NCBI GenBank assembly: GCA_020638655.1
Contig: JACKIC010000003.1
Location: 136,990-200,989 of the forward strand
Reading direction: 5' to 3'
Source of the DNA: Planctomycetota bacterium
GTDB taxonomy: Bacteria; Planctomycetota; UBA1135; UBA2386
DNA length: 64,000 bases
This document shows positions 4,299 to 9,968 of the stretch, piece after piece; position 1 is the first letter of the stretch; every line of letters begins with the position of its first letter. The notes beneath the pieces are model-generated. The model saw only the letters and a list, made by a program, of their open reading frames with translations, was not told the DNA's origin and did no database searches. The position numbers and the translations under genes are program-made.

Positions 4299-5072
4299 AT
4301 GACCGAACCGATCGCAACCGTCGTCCGCATCGCCTCGACTCCCGAGCAGGCGAAGATCTTCGTGGCGATGCTGCAGGCCGAGGGCATCCCCGCGACCGTC
4401 GAGGGCGATTCGCTCGCCGACGAGGTCGCCGTCAGCCGGCGGCTCATGAACCTCGGCGGCACCAAGGTGATGGTGCCGTCCGCGAGCCTCGAGCGCGCCA
4501 AGGAGATCCTCGACATCGGCGCGATCGACGCTGCCGAGCTCGAGGCCCAGGCGCTCGCCGCGGACCCCGACGCCGCGGTGGTGGCCCCTCGGGCGGCGAC
4601 CGTCGCGCCGACCATCGCGTCGACCGTCGCGGCGCCGCGCCGAACGCCCTGGCTGCTGATCGGCTGCGCCGGCGCCGCGGTGCTGTTCCTGGGCTTGTGG
4701 CTCAGCGAGGTCGACGCGCGCGCCGACATGCGCAACCCGAGCATCCGCTACGAGCCGCTGCGCGAAGGCCTGCGCGAGGTGCGCCGCTCGGACGGCAAGG
4801 TGATCGCCGACTACTTCGACGAGGACCGCGACGGCAGCTACGAGCGGGTGGTGGTCTACGCCGAAGGCGGCGAGCAGCTGCTCAGCATCGACTCCGACCA
4901 CGATCTCCGCTACGAGCGCTACACCGAGAATCGCGGCGGGCTGGTCTACGGCTGGGTCGACCAGGACCGCGACGGCACCTTCGACGTCTGCACGGTGACC
5001 GACGCGGACGGCAAGAAGGTGCAGGAGCTGCGCTACGTGCCCATGCGCGGCTTCGTGCTGCAGCAGTACTGA
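4299..5072 (+). CDS. Membrane protein with DUF2007-like N-terminal domain
   Basis: A GAAGGAG RBS lies just upstream of the ATG. The N-terminal ~70 aa resemble the DUF2007 putative signal-transducing fold. There is a central TM helix (WLLIGCAGAAVLFLGLWL). The C-terminal part has three D-x-D-R/H-D-G/L-like units (DEDRDGSYE, DSDHDLRYE, DQDRDGTFD). Confidence 0.65.
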   Translation: MTEPIATVVRIASTPEQAKIFVAMLQAEGIPATVEGDSLADEVAVSRRLMNLGGTKVMVPSASLERAKEILDIGAIDAAELEAQALAADPDAAVVAPRAATVAPTIASTVAAPRRTPWLLIGCAGAAVLFLGLWLSEVDARADMRNPSIRYEPLREGLREVRRSDGKVIADYFDEDRDGSYERVVVYAEGGEQLLSIDSDHDLRYERYTENRGGLVYGWVDQDRDGTFDVCTVTDADGKKVQELRYVPMRGFVLQQY

Positions 5073-5166: not shown

Positions 5167-5493
5167 ATGCAGCTTGCGACCCCGAAGCTGTGCGCCCTGG
5201 CCTGCAGCGGCCTGGCGCTTTCCATCACCGGCCTGATCGCGCAGCAGCCGTCGCAGTTCGCGACGCCCGTGCGGCTCATGGCCGGCGAGACGTTCCTCGG
5301 CGTCGATCGCCTCTACCCGTCGCCGATGTTGCACGACATGAACGGCGACGGCCTCGCCGACATCGTCGTCGGCGACCTGCGCGGCCGCATCACCGTCGCG
5401 CTGCGCCAGCCCGGTGACGGCCCGGCGCGCTACGCCGCCGAGACCAAGCTGATGGCGCTGGACGGCAAGGAACTCGACTTCGCCAATTGGTGA
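5167..5493 (+). CDS. FG-GAP/VCBS repeat protein, N-terminal fragment (signal peptide plus first blade) ending at an in-frame TGA
   Basis: GGAGA lies 6 nt upstream of ATG 5167. The signal peptide is MQLATPKLCALACSGLALSITGLIAQQ and the first FG-GAP unit is DMNGDGLADIVVG. TGA 5491-5493 is in the same frame as the next ORF. Confidence 0.6.
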   Translation: MQLATPKLCALACSGLALSITGLIAQQPSQFATPVRLMAGETFLGVDRLYPSPMLHDMNGDGLADIVVGDLRGRITVALRQPGDGPARYAAETKLMALDGKELDFANW

Positions 5494-5502
5494 TGCATCG
5501 GC

Positions 5503-6528
5503 ATGAGTCCACAGTTCGTGGACTTCAACGCTGACGGTCACCTGGACATCGTCGCCGGCATCTTCGACGGATCGCCGCACGTCGCGTTCGGCGACGGCAA
5601 GGGCTGGCAGCAGCCGGTCGGGATCCTCGACAAGGACGGCGCCCGCATCGTCATGAACGACTTCTGGAACTTCGACACCAAGAAGTGGGACGCGACGACG
5701 CGCTGTGATCCCGCGGGCGCCGCGGTGGTCACGGGCCATCTGACCTCGACCTGGGCCGCCGACTGGGACGGCGACGGCGACTTCGACCTGTTGCTCGGCG
5801 ACCACAAGGGCGGTCAGGTGATGGTGCGCATCAACGAGGGCAGCAATGCGCAGCCGTCGTTCGCGACCAAGAACGTGCCGGTGCTCGCCGGCGGCAAGCC
5901 GATGGTCGTGCCGGGTACGGTTACGACGCTGCGGCTCGTCGACTGGAACGGCGACGGCGTGCAGGACCTGCTCGTCGGCAGCATGGGCGACAGCTACGGC
6001 AACCGGACCGGCGGCGGCGTGTTCGTCTACCTCAACGAGGGCAGCGACGCGGCGCCGAAGTTCGACGCGGCGACGACGCTGATCGAGCCCAGCGCCAAGG
6101 GCGCGGCGGCGCCGGCCCGGCCCGACTCGGGGCTCTACATGGACGTCGGCGACGTCGACGGCGACGGCGATCTCGACCTGATCGTCGGCGGCTACGCGAT
6201 CTGGACGCCGCCTGCCCCCGCGCTCGATGCGGCCCAGCAGGTCCGCGTCGCGGAGCTGCAGAAGGAGCTCGCCGATCTGAACGCGGTGATGCAGGACTTC
6301 TACAAGAGCATCGAAGAGGCCACCAAGGGGCTCGACGAGGCGGCCGCGACGGCCAAACGTGCGGAGCTGCTCAAGGAGCGCAACCAGGTGTTCCAGGAGA
6401 TGAGCAAGAAGCGCGCGGCGGTGCAGCGTGAACTCGAGCCCCTGACCCCCGGTCAGAAGCGCAAGTCGTTCACGTGGCTCTACGAGAACCTGGGCAAGGG
6501 CGCGGTCGACGCCAGCGCGCGTCGTTAG
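5503..6528 (+). CDS. FG-GAP/VCBS repeat protein, C-terminal portion (four blades plus coiled-coil tail); same frame as 5167-5493
   Basis: It contains the repeats DFNADGHLDIVAG, DWDGDGDFDLLLG, DWNGDGVQDLLVG and DVDGDGDLDLIVG. There is no signal peptide of its own, and the first ATG (5503) sits inside a repeat unit. It therefore most likely continues 5167-5493. Confidence 0.6.
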   Translation: MSPQFVDFNADGHLDIVAGIFDGSPHVAFGDGKGWQQPVGILDKDGARIVMNDFWNFDTKKWDATTRCDPAGAAVVTGHLTSTWAADWDGDGDFDLLLGDHKGGQVMVRINEGSNAQPSFATKNVPVLAGGKPMVVPGTVTTLRLVDWNGDGVQDLLVGSMGDSYGNRTGGGVFVYLNEGSDAAPKFDAATTLIEPSAKGAAAPARPDSGLYMDVGDVDGDGDLDLIVGGYAIWTPPAPALDAAQQVRVAELQKELADLNAVMQDFYKSIEEATKGLDEAAATAKRAELLKERNQVFQEMSKKRAAVQRELEPLTPGQKRKSFTWLYENLGKGAVDASARR

Positions 6529-6908
6529 GAGTCGGCGCGGGGCCGGCAGATCAGCCGGTCCAGCGCCAGCGCCAGGACCGCGCCCAGCGCGTAGGCCACC
6601 AGGTCGGCCCACTGAAAACCCTGGCCGAGCAGCAGCGCGCCGACGCGGGTCGAGCGCAGGGCGGCGAGCCAGGCCCAGTCGAGCAGCTGGCTGACCTCGA
6701 CCAGCGCCGACAGGCCCCACGCGAGCACCGCCAGCGCGAGCGGCCGTGCCGCGGGCTGCGCGCAGGCGAGCGCCCAGAACACGGCGACTGTGTAGAGCGC
6801 GTCGCCGGTGTGCTCCGCGAACCAGCCCGGCAGCGGAAACGCCCGCGACAGCAGCCCCAACGCGATGGTCGCGCCCAGGGCGAGGAGGTACGGCAGCCGC
6901 GCGGTCAT
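6525..6908 (-). CDS. DUF2809-family small membrane protein
   Basis: ATG at 6908. It has four hydrophobic helices with the family-like landmarks GDALYTV and VEVSQLL...LLGQGFQWADLVAY. Its start overlaps the upstream stop in an ATGA (6905-6908). Confidence 0.7.
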   Translation of the reverse strand: MTARLPYLLALGATIALGLLSRAFPLPGWFAEHTGDALYTVAVFWALACAQPAARPLALAVLAWGLSALVEVSQLLDWAWLAALRSTRVGALLLGQGFQWADLVAYALGAVLALALDRLICRPRADS

Positions 6909-7876
6909 CGCGTCGAGACTCTCGAGCGGTCGATGTCGAACTCGAGCACCGGATCGAAGTAGATCTCGGTCACCGCGTGCAGGGTGCGTCGCGCGCGCAG
7001 CTGCTGGCGGTTGCGCGGCGGCTCGCGCAGGTCGAGCAGGATCAGGTCGATGAGCTGCCTGCCCTGCTCGTCGACGCTGGGGCGCCACGATTGCAGGAAC
7101 GGCGCGACCTCCGGGCCGAGGTGGTGCAGCGCGTGGGCCGCCATCAACGCATCGCCGCTGACGTCGTTGTCCTGCAGGTGGGTGATGAGCTCGCGCACCA
7201 GCACCGCGAGGTTGTCGGTGTCGCCGTCGCAGGCCAGCAGGAACGCGGCCAGCCAGCGCTGCTGCGGGTCACCGCTCCACAGGGCGCGCCGCAGCGCCGG
7301 TCTGGTGCCCTGGCGGTGGTGGTAGAGATACCGCGTCGCGTCGGGCGAGGTCCGGCTGATCAGCGTGCGGTGCAACTCCTGGTCGACGCGGGAGTGCAGG
7401 GACTCGACGCTCACCTCGAGCAGCCGCGGCGTCGGGCGAATCGTCATCTGCCGGAGCAGGTGCGCCGCGAGTTGTCGTTGCTGCAGGTCGAGGGAGGCCA
7501 GCGCTTCGTGCAGCAACGGCGCGGCGTCGGGGTCGCGCAGGCTGCGCATCGCGGCGAGGGCGTTGCCGGCGATATGGTCGTTGGCCAGGTCGCGGATCTT
7601 CTGCTGATGCCGGCGCCGTTGCTCCGGGGTCGGCGGCGCGAGCTCCGCGGGCGGGTCCGTGGCGGGGTCCACGGTCTCGAGGATGCGCAGCAAGGGGCCG
7701 GCATCCGAGTCGACGATGCCGATCGAGGTTCTGGAGTCGTCTTCCGGAGCGGCCGGCTCCGGATTCTGGCTCACGTCGAGCGGAACCGCGGCAGCGGTCG
7801 TGCGCAGGAGCAACACGACGCCGGTGCAGGCCAGCGCCATGAGGACGGTCATCACGATCCCGCGCCCCGCCAGCAT
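6905..7876 (-). CDS. Hypothetical membrane-anchored protein with HEAT/armadillo-like helical repeats
   Basis: ATG 7876 and an N-terminal anchor (VMTVLMALACTGVVLLL). The composition is helical and Leu/Ala/His-rich with repeated ...AAHLL..., ...AAFLL... and ...AAHAL... segments. It is coupled to the DUF2809 gene. Confidence 0.6.
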   Translation of the reverse strand: MLAGRGIVMTVLMALACTGVVLLLRTTAAAVPLDVSQNPEPAAPEDDSRTSIGIVDSDAGPLLRILETVDPATDPPAELAPPTPEQRRRHQQKIRDLANDHIAGNALAAMRSLRDPDAAPLLHEALASLDLQQRQLAAHLLRQMTIRPTPRLLEVSVESLHSRVDQELHRTLISRTSPDATRYLYHHRQGTRPALRRALWSGDPQQRWLAAFLLACDGDTDNLAVLVRELITHLQDNDVSGDALMAAHALHHLGPEVAPFLQSWRPSVDEQGRQLIDLILLDLREPPRNRQQLRARRTLHAVTEIYFDPVLEFDIDRSRVSTR

Positions 7877-8016: not shown

Positions 8017-8162
8017 GAGGGCTCGGCGCCGATGGGGGTGTGGGGGATTGGGGTCGGCCCTCGCCGAGTCCGACCAGAGGGCCGGGGTCCGTGCGCTCGT
8101 TCCGCCCCCGCTGATTCGCAAGCAGATTGCGGGCAGCCCGAGAGTTGTGGCGGCGCCGCAGT

Positions 8163-9968
8163 ATGTTCTTCCCACCCATGGTCGAGAGTGTCGTCGACAG
8201 GTTCGAAGCGGTGGTCGCGGCACACGCCGACCGACCGGCGCTGACGTTCCGCCGCGGGCCGACCTGGCAGTCCCTGACCTACGGCCGGTTGCGCGAGCGG
8301 GCCGCAGCCATCGCCGAGCAGCTGCGCAGCGCCGGGGTGCAGGCGGGCGACGCGGTCGTCGTCGTGGCGCGTCGGCACCCGGACACGATCGCGACCTTCC
8401 TCGCGGCCCTGCGTCTGGGCGGCTACTACGTGCCCGTCGATCCGCGCGATCCGCCGGCGCGGCGGCAGTTGGTCTTCGACGCCGTGCGCGCCGAAGTCCT
8501 CGTCGAGCCGTCGCCAGATGAGGGCCCGCAAGGGGATGTGGAGCAGGGGCCGCGGATGTCGCGGCGGCAGTTCGGAGGAGTTCGCCAGCCGGGGCGGCCC
8601 GAGTCCGGGAACGCGGCCGCAGAGCAGCCGGTCTACGTGATGTTCACGTCGGGATCGACGGGGCGACCGAAGGGGGTGGTCGTGCCGCACCGCGCGATCG
8701 TGCGGCTCGTCACCGGGCAGGACTACCTGCGTTTCGACCACGGGCGCGTCTTCCTGCAGTCGATCCCGCTCGCCTTCGACGCCTCGGGGCTCGAGATCTA
8801 CGGTGCCCTGTTGCACGGCGGCAACCTGGTGCTGTTCCCGACGGACATGCTGCCGAGCCCGGCGGGGCTGCGCGAGGTCGTCGCCGCGCAGCGCGTCACC
8901 ACGGCCTGCTTCACCGCGCCTCTGTTCCACGCGCTGGTGGACGGTGACGTCACCTGCATGCGCGGACTCGAAGAGATCGTCGTCGGCGGCGAGCGCCTGA
9001 GCGTGCCGCACGTCCGGCGGGCGCTCGAGGCGCTGCCAGGAACGCAGCTCGTCAACGGCTACGGCCCCACCGAGAACGGCGTGCAGTCGACCAGCTATCG
9101 CATCCCGTCCACGCTGCCTGCGGCGGCGCGCGTGCCGATCGGTGTGCCGCTGCGCGGCACCGAGGTGATCGTCGTCGACGAGCAGTTGCGCGAACAGCCG
9201 GTCGGCGTGCCCGGTGAGCTGGTCGTCCTCGGCGATGGCCTGGCGCTGGGTTACCTCGACGAGTCGCCCGCGCGGGGTTCGGCCTTCGTGACCTTGGAGC
9301 GGCGCGGGCAGCGGCAGCGCGCCTACCGCACCGGCGACCGCGGCGTGCAGCTCGCGGACGGCAACTTCGACTTCCTCGGGCGCATCGATCGACAGGTGAA
9401 GATCCAGGGACACCGCGCCGAGCCCGAAGAGGTCGAGCGGGTGTTCGCCGGTCTCGACGGCGTGACGGCGTGCCGCGTGGTGGTGGCTCAGGATCCCGCC
9501 GGCGTCGCGCGTCTGGTCGCCTACGTGGTGCTGGCCGCGGGCGCGGAGCTCGCGGCGGTGTCGGCAGCGGCGGCGGCCCAGTTGCCGTCGTTCCTCGTGC
9601 CCGGTCAAGTCGTCGTGTTGACGGCCCTGCCACTGGGCAACAACGGCAAGGTCGACGACGCGGCGCTGCCCTCGCCGTGGGCGGCAGCGGCGGCGAAGGT
9701 CGAGGCTGCCGTGCCATCCGCTCCCGCAACGACGCCGGCGGCGCTGCGACGCGCCGTCCAGGCGGCCTGGCGCGAAGTCCTCGGCCGGGATCCGGCCGGC
9801 GCCGCAGGCTTCTTCGAGGCCGGCGGACGCTCGCTCGACGCCGTGCGCCTGCACGAGCAACTCGAACGCGCGAGCGGTCGCGCGCTCGAGCCGACGTTCG
9901 TCTACGAGTTCCCGACGCTGCAGCGTCAGGTGGAGGCGCTGACCAAGATGGTCGAGGGAGGGTCGTGA
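8163..9968 (+). CDS. NRPS adenylation-thiolation (A-T) didomain protein
   Basis: A-domain cores present: MFTSGSTGRPKGV, FDASGLE, NGYGPTE, YRTGD, GRIDRQVKIQGHR and NGKVD. The carrier motif is FFEAGGRSLDAV (Ser codon ~9831). The ORF opens at TTG 8127, ATG 8163 is preferred, and ATG 8178 is also possible. Confidence 0.9.
   Translation: MFFPPMVESVVDRFEAVVAAHADRPALTFRRGPTWQSLTYGRLRERAAAIAEQLRSAGVQAGDAVVVVARRHPDTIATFLAALRLGGYYVPVDPRDPPARRQLVFDAVRAEVLVEPSPDEGPQGDVEQGPRMSRRQFGGVRQPGRPESGNAAAEQPVYVMFTSGSTGRPKGVVVPHRAIVRLVTGQDYLRFDHGRVFLQSIPLAFDASGLEIYGALLHGGNLVLFPTDMLPSPAGLREVVAAQRVTTACFTAPLFHALVDGDVTCMRGLEEIVVGGERLSVPHVRRALEALPGTQLVNGYGPTENGVQSTSYRIPSTLPAAARVPIGVPLRGTEVIVVDEQLREQPVGVPGELVVLGDGLALGYLDESPARGSAFVTLERRGQRQRAYRTGDRGVQLADGNFDFLGRIDRQVKIQGHRAEPEEVERVFAGLDGVTACRVVVAQDPAGVARLVAYVVLAAGAELAAVSAAAAAQLPSFLVPGQVVVLTALPLGNNGKVDDAALPSPWAAAAAKVEAAVPSAPATTPAALRRAVQAAWREVLGRDPAGAAGFFEAGGRSLDAVRLHEQLERASGRALEPTFVYEFPTLQRQVEALTKMVEGGS

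Follow-up and report, generated by a model that had tools for sequence, protein, structure and literature searches.

A family of predicted exported FG-GAP beta-propeller selenoproteins in Planctomycetota, marked by a conserved in-frame TGA and a candidate bacterial SECIS element

The 64,000-nt stretch of planctomycete DNA analysed here (hereafter the window; positions 136,990 to 200,989 of contig JACKIC010000003.1, assembly GCA_020638655.1) contains, at positions 5167-6528, two open reading frames (ORFs) that are separated by one in-frame TGA. In all likelihood these positions hold one intact gene, coding for an exported FG-GAP beta-propeller selenoprotein of 453 aa whose UGA is decoded as selenocysteine (Sec, U) by means of a selenocysteine insertion sequence (SECIS) and SelB. 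The Sec-decoding machinery of the genome, the occurrence of TGA or Cys at one alignment column and a covarying hairpin of the bacterial SECIS (bSECIS) type all favour recoding, and for this reason the selenocysteine reading is considered strongly supported. The protein very probably belongs to a large, mostly Sec-containing family of predicted exported FG-GAP propellers, found mainly in Planctomycetota and lying outside the selenoprotein catalogues; since recoding follows a mechanism already known from bacteria, it is the family that is new and not the mechanism. During translation, the hairpin at 5505-5525 would act as a bacterial SECIS, SelB carrying Sec-tRNA(Sec) would bind to it and would deliver selenocysteine at the UGA (5491-5493), pre-empting termination by release factor 2, so that repeat unit 2 would open with the invariant motif N-W-Sec-Cys-I-G.

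The TGA at 5491-5493 is the sole break between the ORFs 5167-5493 and 5503-6528, which lie in one frame and, when translated through it, give a protein of 453 aa with Sec as residue 109. The residues at the junction are ...KELDFANW-U-CIGMSPQFVDFNADGHLDIV..., and the 453-residue product carries ...KELDFANW-U-CIGMSPQFVDFNADG... across the TGA. The initial annotation had taken the two pieces for one gene, and the shared frame and the read-through product agree with it; its description of the pieces also holds, as the translation of the N-terminal one shows one DxDxDG unit and a hydrophobic segment of signal-like character, and the downstream one lacks a signal peptide and has its first ATG within repeat unit 2. 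The downstream 341 aa would be unable to fold or be exported alone, as their start falls within a repeat unit and a signal peptide is missing. The elements of the gene are the following:

5167..6528, + strand: putative selenoprotein gene, complete, of 453 codons counting TGA as Sec, stop codon TAG at 6526-6528; the alignment with orthologues extends to either side of the TGA
5491..5493, + strand: candidate UGA codon for selenocysteine, residue 109; TGA is conserved in the column and Cys is found there in full-length homologues
5494..5496, + strand: Cys110, partner in the putative vicinal Sec-Cys dyad, invariant in the orthologue alignment

In the database, the 120 best homologues of the read-through protein measure without exception 330-360 aa and are limited to the C-terminal 73-75% of the query; therefore, gene callers cut each of them at the same place. 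When 300 other genomes of the phylum were searched in six frames with stops read through, 38 matched, down to 31% identity, so that, with the genome of origin, 39 of 301 genomes and 34 of 238 genera are represented. All 43 column-spanning matches in these genomes carry an in-frame TGA, the sole TGA-less match being a C-terminal partial one, and at the 30 loci that were fetched the first TGA falls without exception at one alignment column, within N-W-U-C-I-G-M-x-x-Q-F-V-D, where N107, W108, U109, C110, I111, G112 and Q116 are invariant. The genome of origin has a second family copy (C7:356785-358083), whose protein is 56% identical and carries the same TGA (NW-U-CIGMSPQFVDF), and whose hairpin is nucleotide-identical (AGTCCAC-AGTTC-GTGGACT). 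The distinct Sec-form genes with TGA at this column amounted first to 39 and then to at least 72, down to ~30% identity. Two loci (L035 and L047) show a second in-frame TGA, ~339 and ~317 codons past the Sec codon, respectively; these are probably ordinary stop codons with open frame beyond.

The nonsense mutation and the sequencing error that had been kept as alternative causes of the split are irreconcilable with a TGA retained in at least 72 diverged genes. A recently nonsense-mutated pseudogene would account for an ORF split by a single in-frame stop, and for a public annotation that calls the downstream fragment only, but it is very improbable in view of the same-column TGA in those genes, which extend to ~30% identity and two phyla and include the paralogue of the same genome, and of the amino-acid conservation on both sides of the codon. 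A sequencing or assembly error, or a genome-wide reassignment of TGA (as in code 4 or 25), is still harder to credit: the source genome (5.18 Mb, 12 contigs, 71% G+C, 83% complete) does resemble a metagenome-assembled draft, but the TGA is common to independent assemblies from many studies, each family member has one in-frame TGA, and TGA is the terminator of 1233 of the 1585 long ORFs with high G+C at third codon positions (78%). TGA being a normal stop genome-wide, any sense reading at 5491-5493 must be local. Pseudogene, sequencing error and reassigned code can be regarded as effectively excluded.

Homologues without a TGA were sought by running phmmer exhaustively against 1.84 billion representatives, with residues 30-208 as query (Sec at query position 80). 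Around 25 short proteins stop at query position 79, with ...NW as last residues, ~50 proteins start at query positions 81-102 with their own first residues, and a small set of full-length proteins crosses the Sec column. Eight of the 13 aligned proteins of this last set are Cys-Cys (e.g., NWCCTGMSLQFVDF and IYCCIGSSPHFVDL), and the remaining five show His-Cys, Gly-Cys, Trp-Ser, Trp-Tyr or Asn..Ser; C110 is thus retained in the Cys-Cys, His-Cys and Gly-Cys homologues. The cultured planctomycete Novipirellula rosea JCM 17759 (locus L065) also has the Cys-Cys form. The standard way to recognise a genuine selenoprotein family is by alternation of Sec and Cys in a single column, and the question posed in the initial annotation, whether this column holds Cys or TGA, is answered with TGA in orthologues and Cys in rarer homologues.

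Downstream of the TGA come tgcatcggcatg (12 nt), AGTCCAC (5506-5512), the loop AGTTC (5513-5517) and GTGGACT (5518-5524), forming a perfect 7-bp stem that a G5505-T5525 wobble pair can lengthen to 8 bp:

5505..5525, + strand: candidate bacterial SECIS core hairpin, stem 5505/5506-5512, loop AGUUC 5513-5517, stem 5518-5524/5525, recognised by fold, covariation and codon bias

The 25-nt hairpin has a folding energy of -11.4 kcal/mol (z = -3.9; equalled by 1 of 200 shuffles) and its 61-nt context (5485-5545) one of -26.4 kcal/mol (z = -4.1; equalled by none of 200), so the hairpin exceeds chance expectation. Its features can be set against the bSECIS consensus of Zhang and Gladyshev, as summarised in PMC13188914 (MFE, minimum free energy):

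Apical loop: 3-9 nt required; 5 nt in hairpin 5505-5525
Upper stem: 4-16 bp required; 7-8 bp in hairpin 5505-5525
Loop bases: G required among the first two, usually followed by G or U; A-G-U-U-C in hairpin 5505-5525
UGA-to-loop spacing: 16-37 nt required; 19 nt in hairpin 5505-5525
MFE: -7.5 kcal/mol or lower required; -11.4 kcal/mol in hairpin 5505-5525

The perfect 7-bp hairpin 12 nt past the TGA and the optional G-U pair had both been pointed out beforehand, at these same positions, together with a resemblance to bacterial SECIS elements; agreement with the consensus of PMC13188914 on every count, plus covariation across orthologues, bears that resemblance out.

Over 30 orthologous loci, 91.7% of the cells of the stem are paired, versus 25-48% when the 3' arm is slid, and four of the eight stem pairs show double-sided changes. 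AGTCCAC/GTGGACT is replaced in orthologues by the compensatory variants GGTCTAC/GTAGACC, AGTCCGC/GCGGAC and GCTCCAC/GTGGAG, and in more distant members by AGTCTGC/GCAGACT and GGTCCGC/GCGGATC; in two cases a synonymous change of Pro (CCA to CCG) on one arm is matched by a Val to Ala change (GTG to GCG) on the other. Codon choice in the stem is also unusual: AGT and CCA are rare in the source genome (2.0% of Ser and 2.9% of Pro codons, respectively), and in the set of 30 genes the stem-position Pro is CCA in 18 of 20 genes, versus 5.9% of Pro codons elsewhere in these genes, with the preceding codon ending in T in 27 of 27, versus 10.3% elsewhere in the same genes. A mean of 6.4 of the 7 stem pairs is formed over 39 distinct Sec-form genes, and 2 of 7 in the Cys-Cys gene of N. 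rosea, whose DNA is the one Cys-form control and in which the hairpin is absent. The offset of the hairpin from the TGA is unchanged in distant subfamilies.

The minimum-energy fold of 5485-5545 also contains a longer structure, with weaker support:

5489..5542, + strand: possible extended lower SECIS stems, which would enclose the UGA

In the orthologue alignment its inner helix is 92% paired and its outer helix 69%, the latter with no double-sided change, and part of this lower-stem pairing may be a by-product of conserved amino acids. The extended lower stem was dropped as a conserved element and is not claimed, because the outer helix is poorly conserved.

The machinery for Sec decoding, which the initial annotation had named as the thing to look for in the rest of the genome, is present in full: profile matches to selA (464 bits), selD (365 bits) and selB (363 bits) and one match to tRNA-Sec (selC; 76 bits, anticodon TCA) were found, all of them above the curated cut-offs. 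selD lies directly downstream of selA on the same strand (C10:292250-294552 of this genome, loci L012 and L001) and contains one in-frame TGA that reads SSSG-U-AAKL, which we take to be the classical SelD selenoprotein form; as SelD would itself be a selenoprotein, Sec decoding would feed back on its own selenium donor enzyme. Judging by selB, which scores higher than the curated cut-off in 214 of the 301 Planctomycetota genomes sampled, the Sec-decoding trait is unusually widespread in the phylum. Strong selB matches (E <= 1e-83) occur in 37 of the 38 other carrier genomes, against the baseline just given; this co-occurrence counts as consistency and not as a statistical test, because related genomes are not independent.

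Taken together, the gene resembles the selenoprotein genes of the SelB/SECIS type, whose archetype is fdhF of Escherichia coli, in having an in-frame UGA followed immediately by a stem-loop within the coding region, a small loop with G and then U near its start, the genes selA, selB, selC and selD, and Cys homologues. It differs in that its protein family is not one of the 119 in the catalogue, the hairpin sequence is family-specific and, unusually, the Sec forms far outnumber the Cys forms.

A further explanation assigns another role to the hairpin, either programmed termination (a conserved regulatory stop that would yield a short secreted N-terminal peptide) or selenium-independent read-through, in which a near-cognate tRNA (Trp, Cys or Arg) would read the TGA and the hairpin would merely slow the ribosome. 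Read-through stimulated by a structure downstream of the stop codon is a known phenomenon, the signal peptide sits on the N-terminal fragment, and selenium is placed in the product from sequence alone, all of which speaks for this explanation. Nevertheless, it appears improbable: the downstream part of 341 aa lacks a signal peptide and begins mid-repeat, Cys, the chemical analogue of Sec, is the occupant of the column in homologues, the spacing and loop of the hairpin suit the SelB-type model, and selB is present in 37 of the 38 other carrier genomes.

Decoding of the UGA as selenocysteine has, for its part, several points to be weighed against it. Sec insertion at residue 109 is deduced from the genes; one carrier genome (G023, 93% complete) has no strong selB match; the stem sits in conserved coding sequence, so the conservation of the hairpin stems partly from the protein; and the covariation test, in which 5 of 500 shuffles reach as many double-sided changes, is indicative only, the sequences being related. 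A scan of positions 5300-5750 against Rfam, where the bacterial SECIS families are lineage-specific, returned no SECIS family and chance-level matches only. As regards function, neither sequence nor fold search found a close solved structure, and 14 loci compared with 4-kb flanks share no gene neighbourhood beyond the family gene itself; the role suggested for the Sec-Cys dyad, which would be a redox-active selenenylsulfide or a soft-metal/metalloid site, is drawn wholly from analogy.

The family with the putative Sec codon is larger than the first query indicated. When the Cys-form protein of Novipirellula served as query, matches appeared in 67 of the 301 genomes of the phylum (22%), every column-spanning match has exactly one TGA, and the phylum sample gave Sec forms only; the sample of 201 Verrucomicrobiota genomes contains 2 that match, each with TGA. 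Several of the carrier genomes are closed or almost so (e.g., G157, G167, G168 and G218). Distant subfamilies (27-33% identity) keep TGA-Cys and a hairpin at the same offset, in motifs such as Y-U-CIASSPQFVDY, NW-U-CVGASSQFVDM and G-U-CIGFGPQLVDL, one of which comes from a metagenome-assembled genome (MAG) of Verrucomicrobiota, and the named relatives are almost all Planctomycetota MAGs. In G119, a genome of the same taxonomic family as the source genome, eight or more paralogues occur, every one of them with a single in-frame TGA (e.g., C10:1979808-1980815, C10:1295961-1296953, C9:1663775-1664743 and C8:684868-685791), which is a marked lineage-specific expansion. Two Sec-form genes stand in tandem at L054:2550-5317, with the motifs GVW-U-CTSSTPQFVDL and DNW-U-CIGMAPQFVDF; this record is labelled Chitinophaga, probably through a binning or label error, given its relatives.

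In a quick maximum-likelihood tree of 86 sequences, 72 of them Sec forms, Sec forms lie on either side of the deepest split, and the forms with Cys or other residues are isolated leaves inside Sec clades, as in the case of a Cys form that is sister to the Sec form of locus L061 with 100% support in the Shimodaira-Hasegawa-like approximate likelihood ratio test (SH-aLRT). The well-supported branches require at least four switches of the residue at the column. The tree being unrooted, ancestral Sec is no more than likely for the family.

Regarding the architecture of the 453-aa protein, Pfam finds FG-GAP_3 (PF13517; 1.1e-18, 68 bits for a cut-off of 26.9) and FG-GAP (PF01839; 7.5e-12, 45.3 bits for a cut-off of 22.1), with nothing else above threshold and no oxidoreductase domain, and the C-terminal domain UnbV_ASPIC (PF07593) has no Pfam match at E <= 0.01. 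Five DxDxDG/FG-GAP units are visible in the protein sequence, which the initial annotation had called five-blade. The AlphaFold2 model (50 sequences; mean predicted local distance difference test score, pLDDT, 91.1; predicted template modelling score, pTM, 0.86) has an all-beta repeat core and consists, in order, of a disordered signal-like N-terminus, the beta-rich core with the five DxDxDG motifs, a helical hairpin and a final strand. The parts outside the core are the following:

5167..5244, + strand: predicted signal peptide, ~residues 1-26, MQLATPKLCALACSGLALSITGLIAQ, with a basic residue ahead of a hydrophobic stretch of 18 residues
6229..6435, + strand: predicted long helical hairpin after the propeller, residues 355-423 (AlphaFold2 helices 355-386, 391-404 and 406-423)
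6457..6483, + strand: predicted C-terminal beta-strand, residues 431-439, SFTWLYENL (AlphaFold2 strand)

The N-termini of orthologues are equally hydrophobic and the pLDDT of residues 1-25 is below 50; from its sequence, the protein would be exported. The helical hairpin region is variable in sequence and absent in some subfamilies, and the FVWLYE-type motif of the C-terminal strand is conserved in Sec and Cys forms; in the model, this strand probably closes the propeller. All Foldseek matches are propellers, at TM 0.3-0.55 (ITFG2, BBS, GH43 propellers and integrin alpha-X), and a sequence search of solved structures gave integrin alpha-4 repeats only (1e-4); the modelled core and the Foldseek matches point to a beta-propeller fold. 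The Sec-Cys pair immediately precedes the I-G that is equivalent to the "FG" of repeat unit 2. In integrin-type propellers the connection into the innermost strand is on the ligand-binding face, and by analogy the Sec-Cys pair would lie in this connection, on the same face.

With the FG-GAP/VCBS propellers (integrin alpha, ITFG2 and CRTAC1/ASPIC-like proteins) the protein shares FG-GAP repeats and DxDxDG motifs resembling calcium loops, its sequence or fold matches to integrin alpha-4, integrin alpha-X and ITFG2 being weak. It differs from them in having five repeat units instead of seven, together with a helical hairpin and a closing strand, and the Sec-Cys dyad is absent from those proteins. 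Adjacent Sec/Cys or Cys/Cys residues are able to chelate soft metals or to close into an eight-membered redox ring; mammalian thioredoxin reductase has a Gly-Cys-Sec-Gly C-terminus, and the propeller of methanol dehydrogenase carries a Cys103-Cys104 disulfide over pyrroloquinoline quinone (PQQ). By analogy, the protein would be like methanol dehydrogenase in holding a vicinal chalcogen pair in a beta-propeller. The likeness of its Sec-Cys pair to the chemistry of thioredoxin reductase is likewise an analogy: the order is Sec-Cys, the pair is internal and not C-terminal, and there is no pyridine-nucleotide disulfide oxidoreductase domain. Unlike the vicinal-pair enzymes, the protein has no flavin or PQQ domain and is predicted to be exported. 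Metal-handling selenoproteins with 'CU' or 'UC' pairs have also been described (HgcA, SaoL, MbdU and the CopZ-like GxUC; PMC13188914). No sequence or fold relationship to thioredoxin reductase, methanol dehydrogenase or these CU/UC selenoproteins was found.

The fragments are publicly annotated as "FG-GAP-like repeat-containing protein" or "VCBS repeat-containing protein", and NCBIfam has no family model matching the protein. The family is missing from a 2026 catalogue that lists 119 selenoprotein families of prokaryotes, in whose text the words FG-GAP, VCBS, ASPIC, propeller and Planctomycetes do not occur. Neither the deep-Sep paper nor the Global Ocean Sampling (GOS) survey mentions an FG-GAP propeller selenoprotein family. 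Searches of the full-text literature returned no relevant FG-GAP, VCBS or beta-propeller selenoprotein and no paper on a Planctomycetota selenoproteome. A single precedent came to light, in Kim et al. 2016 (PMC4807772), whose Table S9 lists P1/P2 candidates that include FG-GAP proteins of Planctomycetes annotated as adjacent gene pairs, mostly with a bSECISearch-positive hairpin and with several copies per genome. These candidates may well belong to the family, the comparison being one of descriptions that leaves identity unproven; they stand in a supplementary listing without motif, alignment or discussion, the aligned residue of the nearest hit is Gly, and the 453-aa protein, set beside them, has no ASPIC/UnbV match.

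The neighbours of the gene in the window (a 257-aa protein, DUF2809, SDR and an adenylation-carrier protein) are uninformative. The 257-aa ORF (4299-5072), upstream, has no Pfam match; a DUF2809 gene (6525-7088, minus strand) converges on the selenoprotein gene with a 4-nt overlap of ends at the TAG stop region; and the gene at 8127-9968, with adenylation and carrier-protein domains (AMP-binding and PP-binding), is unrelated to it.

Among the prokaryotic selenoproteins known so far, thioredoxin-like folds prevail, and the homologues mostly carry Cys. An exported beta-propeller with adjacent Sec and Cys, in a family where Sec forms are dominant, would widen the range of proteins that use selenium. 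Hundreds of database entries of ~340 aa, named "FG-GAP-like" or "VCBS repeat-containing protein", would be truncated at the Sec codon and would lack the signal peptide, the first blade and the probable active site; a family model would correct the annotation across Planctomycetota, where FG-GAP genes split by a TGA are not to be taken for gene decay. The family also offers a concrete target for the question of why so many planctomycetes retain the Sec machinery (214 of the 301 sampled genomes have selB). A more speculative proposal, which we consider possible but somewhat doubtful, is that its members are ancestrally selenium-dependent exported propeller enzymes, with a catalytic vicinal Sec-Cys selenenylsulfide on the propeller face. 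If this is true, the chemistry, redox or soft-metal, would be new to the propeller fold, and the family, present in 22% of sampled genomes, with up to at least eight copies and almost always in the Sec form, may rank among the main uses of selenium in Planctomycetota.

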